64,000 nt of DNA from Firmicutes bacterium CAG:822 (GCA_000432855.1 HF990861.1:9363-73362), one strand, 5' to 3'. Positions 34,398-59,263 are shown, counted from the first letter of the stretch. Numbers and translations: made by a program. Notes: a model not told the origin generated them from the letters alone.

Positions 34398-34596
34398 ATA
34401 ACCTCCCAAACTTTATAATAAAATCACCCTAACAAAAGCTTTTAAATATCTGATACAATTATAATATTTTAATGCCCTTATATCTACCATTTAAAGATGG
34501 AAATATGTCACCCAAACATAACATTTTAATATTTTCCCCTACTTCTATAAAATATTATAACAGAAAAAAATCTGTGTACCAATATAACACCACTAG

Positions 34597-34625
34597 TTGT
34601 CTTAAAGTTAAAAATGTGTTACAAT
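34597..34625 (+). promoter_or_regulatory. sigma-A type promoter of sRNA copy 1
   Basis: TTGTCT (34597-34602), a 17-nt spacer, then TGT-TACAAT (extended -10, 34620-34625). The same block recurs at 36385-36413 and 36800-36828. Confidence 0.7.
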
Positions 34626-34631
34626 GTATAT

Positions 34632-34750
34632 AGATGAGAGAAATCTCATATAATAAAAAGGAACATTCAATACTTCTATGTTGGATGTTGCCATATATTT
34701 TATGGTTATCACCTAAATCATAGTAGCTAATGAGTTAGGTGATTTTCTTT
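34632..34750 (+). ncRNA. candidate antitoxin sRNA, copy 1 (type I TA-like module 1)
   Basis: 5' hairpin ATGAGA-GAAA-TCTCAT, an A-rich linker, a second hairpin AACATTCAA/TTGGATGTT, and the terminator ATCACCTAA...TTAGGTGAT followed by TTTCTTTT ending at 34750. No plus-strand gene lies downstream. The 3' end meets the stop codon of a convergent peptide ORF. Confidence 0.6.
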
Positions 34751-34836
34751 TATATCAGTACTACTAATAGTATTAATAATAAAAGGAAGATAATAATTAC
34801 TAAAGATAAAATTAAAAAATCTTTCTTGTTCATCAT
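34750..34836 (-). CDS. candidate type I toxin peptide 1 (28 aa, hydrophobic)
   Basis: MMNKKDFLILSLVIIIFLLLLILLVVLI*. The SD AAAGGGGG is 4-7 nt upstream and half-buried in the hairpin CTTTTCTT-TTTT-AAGAAAGG. The ORF was missed by the track because of its size. Confidence 0.55.
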   Translation of the reverse strand: MMNKKDFLILSLVIIIFLLLLILLVVLI

Positions 34837-34900
34837 ATCGCCCCCTTTCTTAAAAAAGAAAAGTGGCAATCACCCAACTATTGAACATTCTTTACATATA

Positions 34901-34929
34901 AGTATAACGAATAGTTATATAAAACGCAA
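34901..34929 (-). promoter_or_regulatory. promoter of toxin mRNA 1
   Basis: Read on the minus strand: TTGCGT (34929-34924), a 17-nt spacer, TATACT (34906-34901). Confidence 0.6.
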
Positions 34930-34937
34930 TATATTTC

Positions 34938-34972
34938 AAAAAAAAACGTGCAAAACAAATGCACATTTTTTT
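34938..34972. terminator. bidirectional terminator (A-run, GTGCA-N7-TGCAC, T-run)
   Basis: AAAAAAAACGTGCAAAACAAATGCACATTTTTTT lies directly downstream of the XRE gene that ends at 34985. A near-identical copy is at 37130-37163. Confidence 0.65.
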
Positions 34973-34984
34973 AATAATTAAATA

Positions 34985-35434
34985 CTACTTTTTATCTTTC
35001 CACTCATGATATAAAATATCTTTTAAAACAAGCATACTATCTAACTTACTATATCCATAGTTAGTAGCTAAACTATCCAATAATTGTCTTATTATTCTCG
35101 CATATTTTTCCACATCCACTAAAGATGGATAATCAAGTAATACTGGATACTTTTTACCCCAAGCATTAGTCCAGTTGATTTTAGATTCTATTTTTTCATC
35201 AGTATTTTTAATAACATCCTCGATTTCTTTTAATTCAATATCAAAACCAATCAATTCATCCAATGATAAATTATAAAGTTTAGAAAGCCTTTTAGCTTGA
35301 TAAATATCTGGTAAAGTTTCATTTGTTTCCCATTTAGAAATAGTCTGTCTACTCACCCCTAATTTTTCAGCTACCCTCTCTTGCGATAAACCACATTTCT
35401 TTCTAGCATCCACTAAACTTTTTCCTAAATTCAT
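34985..35434 (-). CDS. XRE-family HTH transcriptional regulator
   Basis: LSQERVAEKLGVSRQTISKWETNETLPDI. GAGGTGAG precedes ATG 35434, whereas the track start is 35473. Confidence 0.75.
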   Translation of the reverse strand: MNLGKSLVDARKKCGLSQERVAEKLGVSRQTISKWETNETLPDIYQAKRLSKLYNLSLDELIGFDIELKEIEDVIKNTDEKIESKINWTNAWGKKYPVLLDYPSLVDVEKYARIIRQLLDSLATNYGYSKLDSMLVLKDILYHEWKDKK

Positions 35435-35530
35435 TATTCTCACCTCAAAAATAAATATATCACATAAAGGCACTTATTTCTATCAACAACAATTTGAATT
35501 TTTGCCCGCATTAATAACACTTAAAAAAAT

Positions 35531-36067
35531 TCATAAACATATCAAAATTAATAAATCTATTATTAAAGTTAGTATCCCTGATATAAACATCAACCAAAAG
35601 AAAATTTTCTTATTAGAGTATCTTAAAACATAAGCGATTTGGGGATTATCTGGATCATAAAAAACATCTAATTTAGAATTAACTGGATATAACTCTTGAA
35701 TAGGATTTTTATATACTCCACCAAAAGAATTTAAAGATCTATTAATCCTCAAAATTCCATTCTCTTCTTTATATTCCACCTCATTTTTACTAAAAGGTGT
35801 GCTTACTGTCTTTTCAATAACCCATTTATACTCAGGGCCTTTAATCTTATACTCTTTTCCGCAGGCCTTATAATAAACAATAGGCAAATGAACACCAGAA
35901 TAACTTACCGTCGTATATCTTTTAACTATTCCCTCTGTTTTAGACGTGCATCTTTTTTCCATAATTAAATACTTGTAAAATAACTTAAAAGCTAAAATAA
36001 TTAATACTAAACCACCAATAGATAAAAATATACCAAACACTAATTTAATAATTTCAATCTCACTCAT
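35531..36067 (-). CDS. DUF3592-like membrane protein
   Basis: 178 aa. TM, then a beta-rich domain (TEGIVKRYTTVSYSGVHLPIVYYKACGKEYKIKG), then a C-terminal TM. Confidence 0.5.
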   Translation of the reverse strand: MSEIEIIKLVFGIFLSIGGLVLIILAFKLFYKYLIMEKRCTSKTEGIVKRYTTVSYSGVHLPIVYYKACGKEYKIKGPEYKWVIEKTVSTPFSKNEVEYKEENGILRINRSLNSFGGVYKNPIQELYPVNSKLDVFYDPDNPQIAYVLRYSNKKIFFWLMFISGILTLIIDLLILICL

Positions 36068-36091
36068 TTTATCACTTCCATAAATAAAGTA

Positions 36092-36280
36092 TTATTTTTC
36101 TTTTGAAACATAAATAATAAGCATAATAATTCCAATTAAACTAATTCCCACTGAAAGACCTAGAAGTAATCCTGATGTAAATTCACCAAAAGAACTTTCA
36201 CTATAGCCAAAAAATATATAAACCAAATATAAAATATTACCTAAAATAACTAAAGATACTCCACCTTTTAATTTTTTCAT
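36092..36280 (-). CDS. small two-TM membrane protein
   Basis: 62 aa, hydrophobic. First gene of the 36280-34985 operon. Confidence 0.4.
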   Translation of the reverse strand: MKKLKGGVSLVILGNILYLVYIFFGYSESSFGEFTSGLLLGLSVGISLIGIIMLIIYVSKEK

Positions 36281-36419
36281 CTAAAACCTCCATATTAAAT
36301 CCTACTACTTAAATTATACACTAAAACCCCAATAACATAAATATAAAATTATAATATAATATTAATTTAAAATAAAACTTAAGTTTCCCATAAAGTTAAA
36401 AATGTGTTACAATGTATAT

Positions 36420-36527
36420 AGATGAGAGAAATCTCATATAATAAAAAAGGAACGTTCAATACTGCAATGTTGGGCGGTGCCAAAAAATTGGATCACCTAA
36501 TCACAGATGTGTTAGGTGAGTTCTTTT
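36420..36527 (+). ncRNA. candidate antitoxin sRNA, copy 2
   Basis: Promoter TTCCCA-17-TGT-TACAAT (36385-36413). The 5' ~60 nt are almost identical to copy 1. Hairpin 2 is AACGTTCAA/TTGGGCGGT. The terminator is TCACCTAA...TTAGGTGA followed by GTTCTTTT. Confidence 0.6.
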
Positions 36528-36603
36528 ATATTAATGTTATTAATAATAGCGACAATAAAAAGAAGATGACAATTACTAAAGCGAAGATTAAAAAATCTTT
36601 CAT
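36526..36603 (-). CDS. candidate type I toxin peptide 2 (25 aa); start/frame ambiguous
   Basis: MKDFLIFALVIVIFFLLSLLLITLI*, with nucleotide-level homology to toxin 1 (AAAGATTTTTTAAT...CTTTAGTAATT...ATCTTC). However, the only good SD (AAAGGAG, 36634-36640) serves an out-of-frame ATG at 36625. Confidence 0.45.
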   Translation of the reverse strand: MKDFLIFALVIVIFFLLSLLLITLI

Positions 36604-36665
36604 CCAATGATAGATGCTTAGACATAATTCATTCTCCTTTCGATTAAGCACCATCAGTGGTTGTT

Positions 36666-36693
36666 ATTATACTGTTTTACAGGGTAAATGCAA
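36666..36693 (-). promoter_or_regulatory. promoter of toxin mRNA 2
   Basis: Read on the minus strand: TTGCAT (36693-36688), a 16-nt spacer, TATAAT (36671-36666). Confidence 0.6.
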
Positions 36694-36834
36694 CTTCTTA
36701 TATTTTCCCAGTTAAATGCAACTTTGTTTACTTTTAGGGTTGCGTTTAGTTTTACATCTTACCACTATATACCATATTAACCTAAAATAAAATTTAAGTT
36801 TGTCTTAAAATTAAAAATGTGTTACAATGTATAT

Positions 36835-36948
36835 AGATGAGAGAAATCTCATATAATAAAAAGGAATGTTCAATACTCGAATGTTGAACGCAACCACTAA
36901 ATTCGTGAAGCGTCTAAATCATCGATGATGAGTTAGACGCTGTTTTCT
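36835..36948 (+). ncRNA. candidate antitoxin sRNA, copy 3
   Basis: Promoter TTGTCT-17-TGT-TACAAT (36800-36828). Same 5' domain as the other copies. Hairpin 2 is TGTTCAA/TTGAACG. The terminator AGCGTCTAA...TTAGACGCT followed by GTTTTCT has a different stem sequence but the same position. Confidence 0.6.
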
Positions 36949-37024
36949 ATTTAAATAGTAATACGAATACTAAAATAAATAGAAGGGATATTATGACATA
37001 AAGAGCTTTTTCTCTTTTAGTCAT
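36947..37024 (-). CDS. candidate type I toxin peptide 3 (25 aa, hydrophobic)
   Basis: MTKREKALYVIISLLFILVFVLLFK*. The SD GGAGGTG is 6 nt upstream and partly sequestered by the hairpin CCAATTCT-CATGT-AGAATTGG. Confidence 0.55.
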   Translation of the reverse strand: MTKREKALYVIISLLFILVFVLLFK

Positions 37025-37089
37025 AAGCATCACCTCCAATTCTACATGAGAATTGGTAGCGCCCAACTATTGAACATTCCTTATACATA

Positions 37090-37118
37090 AGTATAACGAA
37101 TAGTTATATAAAATGCAA
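37090..37118 (-). promoter_or_regulatory. promoter of toxin mRNA 3
   Basis: Read on the minus strand: TTGCAT (37118-37113), a 17-nt spacer, TATACT (37095-37090). Homologous to the toxin-1 promoter. Confidence 0.6.
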
Positions 37119-37129
37119 TATAATTTAAA

Positions 37130-37163
37130 ATAAAAATGTGCAAAACAAATGCACATTTTTTTA
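37130..37163. terminator. bidirectional terminator, duplicate of 34938-34972
   Basis: AAAAATGTGCAAAACAAATGCACATTTTTTT, downstream of the aldo/keto reductase remnant that ends at 37258. Confidence 0.6.
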
Positions 37164-37257
37164 TTACTCATTTTACCTTTATTGTCCTTTTTATTTCCTT
37201 AACTTTAGCAAAAAAATAAATAGAAAAAACAAGATATTTATCATCTTGCCTCTATAA

Positions 37258-38190
37258 TTAATCTACATAACTTTGAAAACTATTTTTAACCTGATAATCT
37301 ATAGCCTCTTTTAATGTCGCATTCACATCAAAGCCAACCTGATCATTAAAACGAGAATAATCTGCTGTTTCGAACGCTCTATCATAATCACTTCTAAAAC
37401 TCTTATAATAATTAAGCTCCGCACTAAAACCAGGATTTGGCTGAATCATAATACTATTATAAGCTCTAATGATATGTGAAAGTGGTACACTATATTTATT
37501 ATCATCCATCAACTCTAAATTATCGGACTGAAATTTCCAAGTTTTCATAATCTCTTTTTTAGTAAAATCTAATACTTCTCTTTCTTTATTATTAAGTGAT
37601 TCAAAATTTTCCATATATGAAACATTATCACGAACCTGCTCCATATTACTCATTCCAGAAAGCACCGTAAGCACTCCATCAAATGAAGACGCATATCTAA
37701 TCGCATAACTAGATGGTGTTGCTAAAGCATTAAGCTCATGCATTTTATCTAAAGCAGCTTCTGGCACTCTAGCTAAAGTGCCACCTTTAACTGGTTCCAT
37801 AACAACCACCTTACAGTTATGTTTTCTAATAACTTCATAACACTTTTTAGATTGAATAAAAAGTTCATCCCAATCATAATAATTTATAACAATCTGTACA
37901 AATTCTACCTCTGAATGTTCATATAAAATCTTATCTAAAGTCTTCGCATCATCGTGAAAAGAAAAACCAATATGGTGAATCTTGCCTTCTTCTTTCCACT
38001 TTCTCATGTATTCAAATAAATGTGTTTCTTTAACCTGTCCTTCATATATAAATCTATTTAAATTATGAAGTAAATAATAATCAAAATACTCTACTCCACA
38101 TTTTTGGAGCTGTGTATTAAAAGTTTCTTCTACCTTATCCTCGGGCACCATATTAAAAATCGGAAATTTTGAAGCTAAAGTAAATTGGTG
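37258..38190 (-). pseudogene. aldo/keto reductase lacking its N-terminal ~85 residues (5'-degraded)
   Basis: The frame is open from 38190 (HQFTLASKFPIFNMVPEDKVEETFNTQLQKCGVEYFDYYLLHN...). The K and H of the AKR tetrad are present, but the upstream D/Y region is replaced by out-of-frame fragments. The track ORF starts at Met 38151. Confidence 0.55.
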
Positions 38191-38421
38191 TTAGTCGGAA
38201 AACGATTAATACCTCTAATTAATTTCATTTCAAAAACTGTCCGTAAGTGAGCTACTTGAGAATCAGTTGAAACACGGACATAAAGAGCTTTCATTTTTTT
38301 TACTACTGCTTTTATATGATTAATAGCTTGTACCTCCTTTTTATAAAAGCATTTTTTGTAAAAAAACTTGCAACTACATGATAACATTTTTATACAAAAA
38401 ATAAAATGCTTATAGTTTAGC

Positions 38422-40256: not shown

Positions 40257-40330
40257 TGGAGGGCCCGATTGGATTTGAACCAACGATCAGGGAGTTGCAG
40301 TCCCATGCCTTACCACTTGGCTACAGGCCC
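40257..40330 (-). tRNA. tRNA-Cys (anticodon GCA), copy A, CCA encoded
   Basis: Hand-folded. Acceptor GGGCCTG/CGGGCCC, anticodon loop CTGCAAC, T-arm GTTGG-TTCAAAT-CCAAT, discriminator T73. Own promoter TTGACT-18-TAAAAT at about 40374-40345. Confidence 0.85.
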
Positions 40331-40411
40331 ATAACATAAATATATTTTACAATATATTTATGTTTTAAGTCAACAATTATAACTAAATTATATACACGTT
40401 TAATAAAATAT

Positions 40412-41860
40412 TTATCTAGTTTTTGATTTTGGTGGAATATCAATATCCCATTCAGTAGATGTACCACCATCTTTAAGAATTATTCCTCTTTCAAGTAATT
40501 CATTTCTTATTTTATCTGCTTCTATCCAATTTTTTTCATCTTTATAATGTTTTCTATTTAATATCATATCATTTATCTCAGACTCATCTATATTATATAA
40601 AGTTAAATACTTATTTTTTATTTCTTCAATCACTTTAATAGGATTTTGTTGAAGTAAACCTAAAGTCGAATACACTTTTATTAAAGCATTCTTCATATCA
40701 ACAACTTCTTGAATTTCATTTTTATTAATCATTTTATTCATTATATTTACATATTCAAAAATATTTGCAATTGCCACGGAAGTATTAAAATCATTATCCA
40801 TAGCTTTTCTAAAATTATTATCAATAATATCTAAGTATTTAGAATTATCATTTGGCTTATAATCACTACCTAATAAATCAATCAAATAAAACAACTTATA
40901 TAACATATATATTTTTGCTTCATGTTGATCAAACATTCCATCTACCACATTCATATCAGAACGATAATTATTTTCTAATAATGACATTCTTATTACTTCA
41001 GGATTATATTCTTTCAATAAATCACCTAATAAAATACCATTGTTTAAAGATTTACTCATTTTCTGACCATTAACTTTAATCAAACCATTATGTAACCAAT
41101 ATCTTGAAAATTGCTTACCTGTTAAAGATTCACTCTGTGCGATTTCATTTTCATGATGAGGGAAAATCAAATCTTTACCACCACCATGTATATCTATTGT
41201 TTCTCCCAAATATTTCATACTCATTGTTGAACATTCAATATGCCATCCAGGTCTACCTAATCCCCAAGGTGATTCCCAAAAAATTTCATCATTTTTTGCA
41301 TTTTTCCATAAAGCAAAATCTTTATCATCTAATTTACCAGGCTCTACACTTTTTCTAACCCCAGATAATCCATCATCAATTATCCTATTTGATAACTTAC
41401 CATACTCTGGAAATGATGAAACCTTAAAAAATACATCTCCATTTTCGGTACAATAAGCATGCCCAGTTTCAATTAATTTCGTGATAAAGTTAATCATATC
41501 AGGTATACATTCTGTCGCTTTTGATTGAATTGTAGGTTTTTCCACAAATAATTGCGATAATTCATAATCTATTTTTTTCATCATATTATTTGCATAATCA
41601 GTAGGATCTACTCCCAATTCACGGGCTTTAATGATTATTTTATCATCTACGTCTGTATAATTTCTAACATAAGTTACTTCATATCCTATATACTCCAAAT
41701 ATTTTTTTATAACATCAAATATAATTGCTTGATATGCATGACCAATATGTGCATCACCAGAAGCTGTTATACCACATGCATACATTTTAACTTTTCCATC
41801 TTCTAAAGGAATAAACTCTTCTTTTTTTCTATGTAAAACATTGTAAACTTTTAGACTCAT
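40412..41860 (-). CDS. cysS: cysteine--tRNA ligase
   Basis: 482 aa. Contains CGITASGDAHIGHA (HIGH) and KMSKSLNN, with CysRS-typical length and layout. Confidence 0.9.
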   Translation of the reverse strand: MSLKVYNVLHRKKEEFIPLEDGKVKMYACGITASGDAHIGHAYQAIIFDVIKKYLEYIGYEVTYVRNYTDVDDKIIIKARELGVDPTDYANNMMKKIDYELSQLFVEKPTIQSKATECIPDMINFITKLIETGHAYCTENGDVFFKVSSFPEYGKLSNRIIDDGLSGVRKSVEPGKLDDKDFALWKNAKNDEIFWESPWGLGRPGWHIECSTMSMKYLGETIDIHGGGKDLIFPHHENEIAQSESLTGKQFSRYWLHNGLIKVNGQKMSKSLNNGILLGDLLKEYNPEVIRMSLLENNYRSDMNVVDGMFDQHEAKIYMLYKLFYLIDLLGSDYKPNDNSKYLDIIDNNFRKAMDNDFNTSVAIANIFEYVNIMNKMINKNEIQEVVDMKNALIKVYSTLGLLQQNPIKVIEEIKNKYLTLYNIDESEINDMILNRKHYKDEKNWIEADKIRNELLERGIILKDGGTSTEWDIDIPPKSKTR

Positions 41861-42009
41861 TTTTGCCTCCTAATTTTAAAGTTTTAATTTAAACATACAA
41901 TCGTAATTTTTTATCTAATACAACACCAAAGAAATGAAAACGATACGGTTTGTACGTATTATACTATTATTTTCTATTAAAATCAATAATATGAATTTAT
42001 ACTATTTTT

Positions 42010-43377
42010 TCATATTTTTATATTTGGCAATAAAATATTCATAAAATATTTTAAAGTATTTCTAACTTTTATCAAGATTTCCATTTCAGCATTAGAATAT
42101 TTCTTTTTTAAATTTTTCATCACATCAACAAGTACCTGTTGATAAAAACCATCTTTCAACTCTTGGTAAATTTTGTCAAATTCCTCAACAAAATCATTGT
42201 TGTTACATTCTACATTAAGTAACTGACTATTTAAAAACACTACATAATCATAAAATTCTTTCAGCATTTTATTTATAATTTTTATATTTTCTTCGGTATA
42301 ATTATACATTTTCGAAGGATGACCACCAGTAAACATTATTATCATGCGAGCAACATTACTACCATATTCATCTAGTAAATCTTTCAACAATACAGCAGTT
42401 CCTCTTGAAGATGACATACGTTCACCATTTACATATCCCATTCCAGTAATAAAATACTTATTTGTATAATACTTCTTTTTAAAAAGTAAACTTTCAGAAA
42501 AAGTTTTCTTAATTATCCAATTTTTTAAATGTTCTTCACAAACAAATAAATCTGTTGGCAACCATTTTACAACTGCTTCTACTATAGGAATAGTTGTTTT
42601 TTTATTTCCACCAAGAACCTCAAATATTTCATTAAAAATGTCTTCCTTTTTTTCATCATTATTCAAATATTTAAATTTTTTATATAAATCATAAATTACA
42701 AATAACTCACTATCAAACATTGGATCAATAACATAGTTGTCTCTATATCTAACACCAATTCCATAATTTCTTAATATTCCCCAATCACTTCTTATATTTT
42801 CAAAAGATGATATTATATTATTCCTTAAACTTGGGCTAATAAAAATTAGTTGTTCCAAATTGTTTTTTGTTTGTTTTTTCCAAGTTTCATCATCATAGTT
42901 AAGTGCCAATTCATCTTTAGAATTTTTGATTAACATACCTTTCTTTTCGTAACAATTAAATATTGTTCTAACAAATATCTCATAATCTTCTTCATTTGTT
43001 TTATAAAAATTTACATAATCACATGAAATATCAAGCCGTTTCAAATCTAATAAAGTCTGAGCAGTATAATAATCTAACAATTTTTCAGGATTGTTAAAAT
43101 TTTCAACGACTTTTCTCGGAGTTTTATAACCTTTGATAAATTTATCTCTCTCTTTATTTCTAACTTCTTTGTTATTGCTATTTAAATTATTAATAGTATT
43201 CTCTGCAGTCACTCCACTATAATGTGAAGCTATTGGAAAGCAAACATCTTTCCCTTCCGCACGTGCAATTCTCGCATTAATATCAGCAACTAACATAATT
43301 TTAGCATGATCAATACTCAAAGGACATACTGGATATATATATGGAACTGAAATAAGCAACTTATTATTTTTCTTCAC
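42010..43377 (-). CDS. class I aminoacyl-tRNA-synthetase-like paralog with degenerate signature motifs
   Basis: 455 aa. PYIYPVCPLSIDHAKIMLVADINARIARAEGKDVCF occupies the HIGH region (SIDH instead of HIGH). GERMSSSRGTAV occupies the KMSKS position. Class Ia-like WG...D blocks lie between them. GTG start with SD AAGGAG. Confidence 0.6.
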   Translation of the reverse strand: MKKNNKLLISVPYIYPVCPLSIDHAKIMLVADINARIARAEGKDVCFPIASHYSGVTAENTINNLNSNNKEVRNKERDKFIKGYKTPRKVVENFNNPEKLLDYYTAQTLLDLKRLDISCDYVNFYKTNEEDYEIFVRTIFNCYEKKGMLIKNSKDELALNYDDETWKKQTKNNLEQLIFISPSLRNNIISSFENIRSDWGILRNYGIGVRYRDNYVIDPMFDSELFVIYDLYKKFKYLNNDEKKEDIFNEIFEVLGGNKKTTIPIVEAVVKWLPTDLFVCEEHLKNWIIKKTFSESLLFKKKYYTNKYFITGMGYVNGERMSSSRGTAVLLKDLLDEYGSNVARMIIMFTGGHPSKMYNYTEENIKIINKMLKEFYDYVVFLNSQLLNVECNNNDFVEEFDKIYQELKDGFYQQVLVDVMKNLKKKYSNAEMEILIKVRNTLKYFMNILLPNIKI

Positions 43378-53937: not shown

Positions 53938-54011
53938 TGGAGGGCCTAGTCGGATTTGAACCAACGATCAGGGAGTTGCAGTCCCATGCCTTACCACTTG
54001 GCTATAGACCC
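53938..54011 (-). tRNA. tRNA-Cys (anticodon GCA), copy B, CCA encoded
   Basis: The D-arm and anticodon arm are identical to copy A. Acceptor GGGTCTA/TAGGCCC and T-stem GTTGG/CCGAC differ from copy A by paired changes. Discriminator T73. Confidence 0.85.
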
Positions 54012-59036: not shown

Positions 59037-59263
59037 CCTCCTAACAAAAAAATCACATCCAATAAGGACGTGATTGACGTGGTACCACCTTAATTTATAA
59101 GTTAAACTTACCTCAATAACTATAACGCGTTACCGATATATCTTTACATATACAGCTCCTAAGGTGAATTCATAAAAGATTATTACTAACTTCCACCAAC
59201 CGTTAGTTCTCTATAAATAATTACTTCTATTACTACGTCTTAATCTTCGCTTTTAAAATTTCA
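59037..59263 (-). promoter_or_regulatory. T-box riboswitch leader (Phe specifier) of pheST
   Basis: Read on the minus strand. -10 GGTATAAT (59275-59270). Stem I contains AGAGA...GGTGGAA. Specifier loop GAATTCACC has TTC (59168-59166) followed by a purine. T-box AATTAAGGTGGTACCACG (59095-59078). Terminator ATCACGTCC...GGATGTGAT followed by TTTTTTT (59074-59046). Confidence 0.85.

Follow-up and report, generated by a model that had tools for sequence, protein, structure and literature searches.

The window analysed here, a stretch of 64,000 nucleotides (nt) from Firmicutes bacterium CAG:822 (GCA_000432855.1 HF990861.1:9363-73362) to whose first letter all positions refer, carries at 34597-37163 three copies of a module in which a plus-strand small RNA (sRNA) faces a minus-strand open reading frame (ORF) for a tiny hydrophobic peptide. 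Sequence comparisons indicate that the copies belong to a real, conserved and previously undescribed family of type I toxin-antitoxin-like modules, represented in the window by two intact modules and one decayed module; probably, this is a new type I toxin-antitoxin family built like bsrG/SR4. According to the predicted layout, a ~120-nt sRNA with a strong extended -10 promoter stands opposite a ~235-250-nt mRNA for a single-helix hydrophobic peptide of 25-28 amino acids (aa) and is antisense to the whole ~95-100-nt 3' untranslated region (UTR) of this mRNA. A long-range helix, for which the name P1 was taken over from bsrG, joins the last ~45 nt of the mRNA to its first ~30 nt, and a hairpin sequestering the Shine-Dalgarno (SD) sequence (anti-SD hairpin) lies immediately downstream of the P1 5' arm. 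Two of the features that define the type I class, namely a small hydrophobic ORF and a cis antisense RNA with its own conserved promoter and terminator, are present in the predicted transcripts; a third, a toxicity of the peptide that the RNA neutralises, has indirect support from the decay pattern described below. The feature coordinates are collected in Table 1.

Relatives of the modules were retrieved in two ways. A search of genomes with the 20-nt pattern of the sRNA 5' hairpin (hairpin 1) produced 34 genuine loci, while a search of metagenomes with the toxin mRNA 5' sequence as a query, which is independent of hairpin 1, added nine further modules; hairpin 1 was present in every metagenome module whose contig reaches the sRNA side. 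The pattern matches L025, L038 and L044 were due to chance and were dropped from the set. Together the 34 genome and 9 metagenome loci gave 67 covariance-model matches corresponding to 59 unique sRNAs. The genome-derived relatives are uncultured Bacilli with genomes of 1.3-1.5 Mb, including Candidatus Coprosoma intestinipullorum, and the metagenome-derived ones come from chicken and human gut. Several genomes contain multiple loci, some of which are tandem arrays with a spacing of ~355 nt. No plasmid or phage match to module 1 was found by blastn in the distant mode, no peptide B in plasmids by tblastn and no hairpin 1 pattern in viral contigs. Literature searches with the peptide and hairpin 1 strings gave no match, and ten ORF variants were absent from a collection of 15 billion proteins.

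In the window, the promoter and 5' hairpin block is present on the plus strand at 34597, 36385 and 36800 and nowhere else; copies 1 and 3 matched a 67-nt query with 0 and 1 mismatches, respectively, against 0 matches expected from shuffled sequences. In copy 2, the A-run of the linker contains a 1-nt insertion (an extra A) and the -35 box is weaker (TTCCCA). Identity between the copies is complete over a stretch that begins ~10 nt before the -10 box and reaches the GGAA behind the linker, and it drops to ~70% farther downstream. All three promoters have a 17-nt spacer and the extended -10 TGtTACAAT. The predicted sRNA fold starts with hairpin 1 (AUGAGA-GAAA-UCUCAU), which an A-rich linker separates from hairpin 2; next come the small hairpin 3 and, at the end, a terminator with a U tail. 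The fold z-scores are -5.8, -5.2 and -4.5 for modules 1, 2 and 3, respectively. Both hairpin 2 and the terminator have arms that vary between the copies yet remain paired, and no credible gene follows any copy on the plus strand. The family covariance model found exactly three matches in the 64 kb, corresponding to modules 1-3. An earlier note, made from the sequence of this DNA, had already described the threefold block, the -35 box with its 17-nt spacer and extended -10, the differing but complementary arms and the lack of a downstream gene, all of which were borne out; its four-part RNA (GNRA hairpin, linker, hairpin 2 and terminator) was correct except that the small hairpin 3 had been overlooked. 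The Rfam comparison that it had proposed for the plus-strand RNA gave no known family: at gathering thresholds only T-box and tRNAs, and no antitoxin or cis-regulatory family, were found in the whole window, while the module region searched at E<=10 produced only chance-level matches, none of them to RatA.

Across the family, the sRNA promoters have TG at -15/-14 in 58 of 62 cases and TTG at -35 in 56 of 62; the -10 hexamer itself varies (TAnnAT: TAAAAT, TATTAT, TACAAT and others), and its distance to hairpin 1 is constant. RNAalifold recovered hairpin 1, hairpin 2 and the terminator, with double compensatory changes in 15 of 22 pairs. Within hairpin 2, ~63 alignment cells are G·U against ~4 that are A·C, and in 28 of 36 copies the sRNA sense gives this hairpin the better fold (mean -8.9 kcal/mol, versus -6.1 kcal/mol in the mRNA sense), which argues that it is selected in the plus-strand RNA. 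Such conservation suggests that the plus-strand RNA is a real structured transcript.

On the opposite strand, 45 unique modules contain a convergent ORF of 22-30 aa with an SD, an ATG and a hydrophobic run of 13-22 residues, and across the family its stop codon is positioned under the sRNA U tail. The peptides fall into unrelated families (MNKKDFLILSLVIIIFFLLSLLLITLI, n=13 variants; MTKREKALYAIISLLFILIFIILFK, n=10 variants; MSKRAFVL.../MKKRIFIV..., 30 aa; MQQLIASILIVFYTILILKNKD); the families of the module 1 and module 3 peptides comprise 13 and 10 variants, respectively. The distribution of the variation by codon position was 743:320:783 in the module 1 peptide family and 293:169:322 in a second count. 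Since position 2 is the most constrained, the mini-ORFs read as hydrophobic coding sequence. Of the alternative frames, +1 is closed throughout the peptide families A and B; +2 is closed in 9 of the 11 copies of family B and open in 14 of the 15 copies of family A. From this pattern we infer that the mini-ORFs are coding.

The toxin promoters conform to TTGnnn-17-TAnnnT in 31 of 35 unique cases (28 of them with TATACT) and end 6-7 nt before the P1 arm. A local anti-SD hairpin was found in every peptide family (for example, CCUCC-GAAA-GGAGG in L015), and in module 1 the region from the SD to the AUG has an unpaired probability of 0.10. The convergent hydrophobic mini-ORFs of the earlier note are present in all three modules as quoted, but that of module 2 is truncated and lacks an SD; likewise, the individual promoters, which had been claimed for each mini-ORF, exist in modules 1 and 3 (TATACT type) and not in module 2, which has no family promoter. 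The SD placed by the note in a 5' UTR hairpin of modules 1 and 3 is indeed there, predicted to be locked in the former and half buried in the latter. Directly upstream of the two intact toxin promoters lie near-identical hairpins (34941-34971 and 37126-37166; GTGCA-n7-TGCAC) flanked by A- and T-runs, which probably serve as terminators for the XRE and aldo-keto reductase genes located upstream and protect the toxins against read-through.

The hairpin 2 and the A-rich linker of the sRNA are the reverse complement of the toxin mRNA 3' end and its U-run; the linker would be A-rich because its complement is this U-run. In modules 1 and 3, AACCAUAAAAUA or UUCACGAAUUUAG follows the minus-strand complement of the sRNA terminator, without a direct U-run after the stem; in module 2 a U6 run stands ~5 nt downstream. 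Since the U-run follows the complement of hairpin 2 and not that of the sRNA terminator, the toxin mRNA most likely extends to CCUUUUUAUUAU, and the two RNAs would therefore overlap over the whole 3' UTR instead of sharing the single bidirectional terminator that had been postulated before. The cognate pairing of the sRNA with the 3' UTR in the window amounts to ~-115 kcal/mol net, compared to ~-30 kcal/mol for non-cognate combinations.

Hairpin 2, previously regarded as a feature of the sRNA alone, has a counterpart at the other end of the toxin mRNA: the first ~30 nt of the latter are a loop-deleted copy of it (AAGGAAUGUUCAAUA-GUUGGGCGC in the mRNA versus AAGGAAUGUUCAAUA[CUCGAAU]GUUGAACGC in the sRNA) and, because of this, are complementary to the mRNA's own 3' end. 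The full-length mRNAs of modules 1 and 3 fold with the long-range P1 (z = -7.1 and -10.5, respectively). In 36 modules the cognate 5'/3' duplex had energies between -33 and -48 kcal/mol, compared with -18 to -23 kcal/mol in toxin-less copies, with a mean of -36.4 kcal/mol for the intramolecular P1. Divergent modules prefer their own 3' ends: L003 gave -47.7 kcal/mol against a mean of -25.3 kcal/mol with the partners of other clusters, and the corresponding own and foreign values were -38.3 and -22.0 kcal/mol for L009 and -40.3 and -23.6 kcal/mol for L014. In the sub-helix P1a, 96% of the cells are paired and 10 of 15 pairs show compensatory changes, while 0 of 500 shuffles reached the observed values and slid alignments were only 37-50% paired. 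The figure of 63% paired, which the alignment A5 gave for P1b, is too low, because 1-nt shifts put some of the P1b columns out of register. Where the 5' arm departs from the sRNA, many pairs of P1 are U·G or G·U, indicating that this arm is kept for pairing and not merely copied. According to the predictions, sRNA binding releases the mRNA's first 30 nt, whose unpaired probability increases from ~0.1 to 0.4-0.5, and leaves the SD accessibility unchanged.

From these elements the following course of events can be proposed. P1 would close the mRNA into a stable and poorly translated panhandle with both ends protected. The first contact with the sRNA might be made through the loops of the sRNA terminator and hairpin 3, whereupon the sRNA would zip along the 3' UTR and displace the mRNA 5' arm, since its hairpin 2 is a perfect competitor for the partner of that arm. 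The products would be a long double-stranded RNA, a substrate for RNase III, and an exposed 5' end, a substrate for RNase J/Y, so that the toxin mRNA would be destroyed by duplex cleavage and 5'-end attack before the peptide inserts in the membrane.

In Gram-positive type I systems, 3'-overlapping antisense RNAs and 5'-3' interactions within the mRNA are typical (PMC8594479), and the layout of the modules agrees with this pattern. For bsrG/SR4 from the SPβ prophage of B. subtilis, it was demonstrated that nt 1-35 of the bsrG mRNA pair with nt 232-262. Among the four stem-loops of SR4, SL1 has no complementarity to the mRNA and SL2 forms the antisense of the bsrG mRNA terminator; SR4 binding leaves nt 1-33 of the mRNA single-stranded (PMC3834814). 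The modules share with it the convergent genes with RNAs overlapping at their 3' ends, the four-stem-loop antitoxin, in which the first stem-loop is non-complementary, the second antisense to the mRNA terminator and the last its own terminator, the inclusion of the mRNA 5' ~30-35 nt in a long helix with the 3' part, for whose partner the antitoxin competes, the SD in a local stem and the small hydrophobic peptide as a (here predicted) toxin. There is, however, no sequence or profile similarity, and the peptides have 22-30 aa instead of 38 aa. Furthermore, the sRNA barely overlaps the ORF, the overlap being confined to the 3' UTR, the P1 3' arm is the terminator region abutting the U-run and not a segment beside a separate terminator, the first stem-loop is near-invariant across the family, and the modules are chromosomal, multi-copy and not located in a prophage. 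A bsrG-like change of SD accessibility induced by the sRNA was considered and dropped, as no added sequestration on sRNA binding is predicted. The match in architecture is thus one in the way of working, not a membership by homology.

The resemblance to txpA/RatA, bsrE/SR5, yonT/SR6 and SprG/SprF includes an antisense RNA on the 3' side with partial overlap and an expected RNase III-dependent decay (PMC8594479, PMC3531473), but the modules have no Rfam antitoxin match, their peptides are unrelated and shorter, and the overlap involves the 3' UTR only. The likeness to txpA/RatA in the way of working is looser than that to bsrG/SR4. With Fst/RNA II (par of pAD1) and SprA1/SprA1as the modules have in common the tiny hydrophobic peptide, convergent transcription and a sequestered SD. 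An intramolecular helix in which the mRNA 5' end takes part, as in par RNA I, is a further likeness. On the other hand, each RNA of the modules has its own 3' helix, and the peptides gave no match at E<=10 to the Fst-family toxin models (Pfam Fst_toxin and NCBIfam), while the Fst systems share one bidirectional terminator and have their decisive contacts between 5' regions outside the overlap (PMC8594479). A Fst-like pairing of the sRNA with the mRNA 5' end was rejected, being barely above the controls (-20.8 versus -16.6 kcal/mol with shuffled 5' ends). The earlier assignment to both the Fst/par and the TxpA/BsrG types can accordingly be narrowed to the latter, with which the promoters, covarying helices, conserved ORFs and decay pattern agree, since the specific Fst/par features were not found. 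In hok/Sok and AapA1/IsoA1 the full-length toxin mRNA is also closed by 5'-3' pairing and kept inert (PMC8594479), but there the antisense RNA acts on the 5'/translation-initiation region and 3' trimming activates the mRNA, in contrast to the modules, where the antisense RNA hits the 3' partner of the fold-back.

The three modules had been presented as equivalent, but only modules 1 and 3 are intact and module 2 is a toxin-truncated remnant: its peptide (MKDFLIF...) has neither an SD nor the family 5' UTR, while its sRNA is intact. Because the orthologues in close relatives read MNKKDFLIFALVIIIFFLLSLLLITLI and possess an SD, the toxin of module 2 must have been cut at codons 2-3, and module 2 can be regarded as a decayed copy that survives as an orphan antitoxin. 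Intact, the module 2 cassette is present in the close relatives L017 and L021 at the position of window module 1, with flanking genes 97% identical. When window 34500-35000 is aligned with L017 2832-3320, the flanks are 97-98% identical and the interior is different; the L017 interior corresponds to window module 2 (36290-36640). The exchanged interior extends from hairpin 2 through the toxin ORF to the SD region. The occupation of the module 1 position by the module 2 cassette in L017 and L021 indicates that cassettes were swapped between modules via conserved flanks, and the sRNA 5' block and the toxin promoter with the 5' arm appear to act as recombination handles. The family includes 45 modules with a toxin ORF and 5' arm, 9 with the sRNA only and 0 with the toxin only, an asymmetry that is expected if the loss of the antitoxin is lethal. 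Orphan sRNAs without toxin ORF or 5' arm are those of L008, L016, L029, L035, L036 (6159), L017 (4736) and L021 (765). Two versions of a decayed hairpin 1 (AUGAGA-AAGA-UCUUAU and AUGAG-AAAAAC-CUUAU) both occur in toxin-less modules, which suggests that the sRNA decays slowly after toxin loss.

Hairpin 1 itself has no complementarity to the toxin mRNA and is most likely a 5' stabiliser or a protein handle. A different role of the 5' block, as a DNA operator (the palindrome ATGAGA-n4-TCTCAT, for example for the adjacent XRE protein) or as the start of a leaderless mini-ORF (MREISYNKK...), could be imagined from the position of the palindrome at ~+3 to +18 of the sRNA promoter, the XRE helix-turn-helix gene between modules 1 and 2 and an ATG located 2-3 nt from the predicted transcription start, but it is very unlikely. 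Five copies have AUGGGA/UCUCAU, which breaks the DNA palindrome and keeps a G·U pair in the RNA, disfavouring an operator, and in three others (AUGAAG-GAAA-CUUCAU) two base pairs are changed on both sides with the GAAA loop kept. The leaderless ORF was rejected, as the ATAAAATAA and AUGAAG alleles end it with a stop at codon 6 and indels in the linker A-run shift its frame. Highly improbable is also a repetitive intergenic or mobile element, similar to miniature inverted-repeat transposable elements (MITE) or repetitive extragenic palindromes (REP), in which the promoter boxes, hairpins and mini-ORFs would be incidental. Such an element would fit the multiple copies, the tandem arrays and the signs of recombination between copies; it would not fit -10 and -35 boxes which vary in sequence with consensus and spacing kept, a G·U asymmetry tying the helices to specific transcripts, or the codon-position bias and the SD and ATG kept in 45 copies, and neither terminal inverted repeats nor target duplications were seen.

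An unlikely alternative of another kind accepts the RNA pair as real and takes the peptide for an antisense-controlled small membrane protein, such as a regulator or an accessory subunit, in which case the locus would not be a toxin-antitoxin system. It is consistent with the chromosomal location of the modules, none of which were found on plasmids, phages or viral contigs, and with two of the points mentioned below, the lack of a toxin family for the peptides and the SD predicted to be locked irrespective of the sRNA. The occurrence of several copies per genome, tandem arrays and cassette swapping speak against it, as do the unrelated peptides (MNKKDFLI..., MTKREKALY..., MSKRAFVL..., MQQLIAS...) on one RNA scaffold, the loss of the ORF that always leaves the sRNA and never the reverse, and the layered repression by P1, the anti-SD hairpin and the upstream insulating terminator, which is typical of toxin genes. 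The interpretation as a bsrG/SR4-like toxin-antitoxin family has, nevertheless, several observations to its disadvantage. The Pfam and NCBIfam searches with the peptides gave sub-threshold noise only and no toxin family, in line with the note, which could not name a family either, and all of the relatives are metagenome-assembled genomes or metagenome contigs. The ends of both transcripts are sequence predictions, and the 3' end of the toxin mRNA is uncertain because at least 10 of 36 modules have a very weak mRNA-sense hairpin ahead of the U-run. According to the predictions, the SD is locked whether the sRNA is present or absent, which leaves an effect of the sRNA on translation unsupported, and the type I model does not account for the near-invariance of hairpin 1.

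The weakness of the local mRNA-sense hairpin leads to the consideration that P1 itself may serve as the terminator helix. In a joint reading, which is tentative and rather doubtful, hairpin 1 with its GAAA loop and the A-rich linker would be a handle by which a dedicated protein, such as an RNase or a chaperone, recognises the sRNAs of the whole family, and P1 rather than the local hairpin would be the toxin mRNA terminator beside the U-run. If the first were true, many otherwise unrelated antitoxin specificity cassettes would plug into one 5' module; if the second were true, the 5' end of the mRNA would control the formation of its 3' end, and the sRNA, having the same sequence as the 5' arm, could mimic or block termination co-transcriptionally.

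As a candidate type I toxin-antitoxin family, the modules add to this class a group that is invisible to gene callers and to RNA and protein libraries, in a poorly known lineage of small-genome gut Bacilli of chickens and humans. Its dozens of natural variants provide clean covariation for every helix, including the mRNA 5'-3' closure, which has been experimentally shown for few systems only. The design is modular, with an exchangeable core of specificity hairpins, toxin ORF and SD region between parts that stay constant, namely the sRNA 5' domain and the toxin promoter with its 5' arm, and could serve for orthogonal RNA regulators. The family also poses testable questions, such as the binding partner of the GNRA hairpin and the termination of the toxin mRNA.

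Table 1. Predicted features of the three modules and the sequence fused to module 2 (positions in the window;. means no strand assigned).
Feature	Position	Strand	Details
Module 1 sRNA promoter	34597..34625	+	-35 TTGTCT, 17-nt spacer, -10 TGtTACAAT
Module 1 antisense sRNA, ~120 nt, predicted ends	34632..34752	+	-37.7 kcal/mol, z -5.8; 115 bits (covariance model)
Module 1 sRNA, 5' part	34634-34649; 34650-34661; 34662-34689	+	hairpin 1; linker; hairpin 2
Module 1 sRNA, 3' part	34690-34706; 34708-34743	+	hairpin 3; terminator, then U tail
Module 1 toxin mRNA 3' end	34650..34692	-	P1 3' arm (complement of hairpin 2), then U-run CCUUUUUAUUAU (complement of linker)
Module 1 toxin ORF	34750..34836	-	MMNKKDFLILSLVIIIFLLLLILLVVLI; 28 aa, or 27 aa from second ATG; stop under sRNA U tail
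Module 1 SD GGGGG	34841..34866	-	in local anti-SD hairpin CUUUUCUU/AAGAAAGG + AUUGCC/GGCGAU
Module 1 P1 5' arm	34865..34893	-	AAAGAAUGUUCAAUAGUUGGGUGAUUGCC; mRNA 5' end
Module 1 toxin promoter	34901..34929	-	TTGCGT, 17-nt spacer, TATACT; predicted start <=1-2 nt from first P1 base
Terminator hairpin upstream of module 1 toxin promoter	34941..34971	.	would insulate toxin from XRE gene read-through
Module 2 sRNA and promoter	36385..36529	+	sRNA ~36420-36529; 107.8 bits; -35 degenerate (TTCCCA), extended -10 intact
Out-of-frame 37-aa ORF	36512-36625	-	strong SD and ATG
Module 2 toxin remnant	36526..36603	-	MKDFLIFALVIVIFFLLSLLLITLI; without SD, P1 arm and family promoter; 5'/3' duplex -19.5 kcal/mol
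Unrelated sequence, ~180 nt, joined to truncated module 2 toxin	36604..36780	-	no homologue in any locus retrieved
28-nt tandem repeat	36675-36730	-	core TAAATGCAAC; within sequence fused to module 2 toxin
Module 3 sRNA promoter	36800..36828	+	TTGTCT, 17-nt spacer, TGtTACAAT
Module 3 antisense sRNA	36835..36952	+	111.9 bits (covariance model)
Module 3 sRNA elements	36837-36852; ~36866-36891; ~36909-36941	+	hairpin 1; hairpin 2; terminator
Module 3 toxin mRNA 3' end	36850..36891	-	P1 3' arm and U-run
Module 3 toxin ORF	36947..37024	-	MTKREKALYVIISLLFILVFVLLFK; 25 aa
Module 3 SD GGAGGUG	37031..37057	-	half buried in hairpin CCAAUUCU/AGAAUUGG
Module 3 P1 5' arm	37059..37082	-	AAGGAAUGUUCAAUAGUUGGGCGC; mRNA 5' end; repeat I21, 15/15 nt complementary
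Module 3 toxin promoter	37090..37118	-	TTGCAT, 17-nt spacer, TATACT
Terminator hairpin upstream of module 3 toxin promoter	37126..37166	.	repeat (D5) of module 1 counterpart

The window has a GC content of ~27%, a strongly negative GC skew of the plus strand and nearly all of its genes on the minus strand; hence, the three sRNA promoters fire against the prevailing gene direction, which the toxins share. Three genes, for an XRE-family helix-turn-helix protein, a membrane protein similar to DUF3592 and a membrane protein of 62 aa, occupy the interval between modules 1 and 2 (34985-36280, minus strand); their synteny extends to L017 and L021 and, at a greater distance, to L004, L011 and L039. 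Within 37258-38387 (minus strand), the Pfam profile match of an aldo/keto reductase ORF starts only at position 86. A 70-aa ORF upstream of it, without a Pfam match, reads ...MKALYVRVSTDSQ..., a motif that we presume to resemble the N-terminus of serine recombinases. Both ORFs look like gene remnants beside the modules. Farther away, cysS (40412-41860, minus strand) adjoins a tRNA-Cys and a divergent 455-aa class I aminoacyl-tRNA-synthetase-like paralogue in the region 40257-43377; this paralogue (42010-43377, minus strand) matches tRNA-synt_1g at 1e-13. Another tRNA-Cys and a T-box leader are found further along (53938-54011 and 59061-59256, both on the minus strand).

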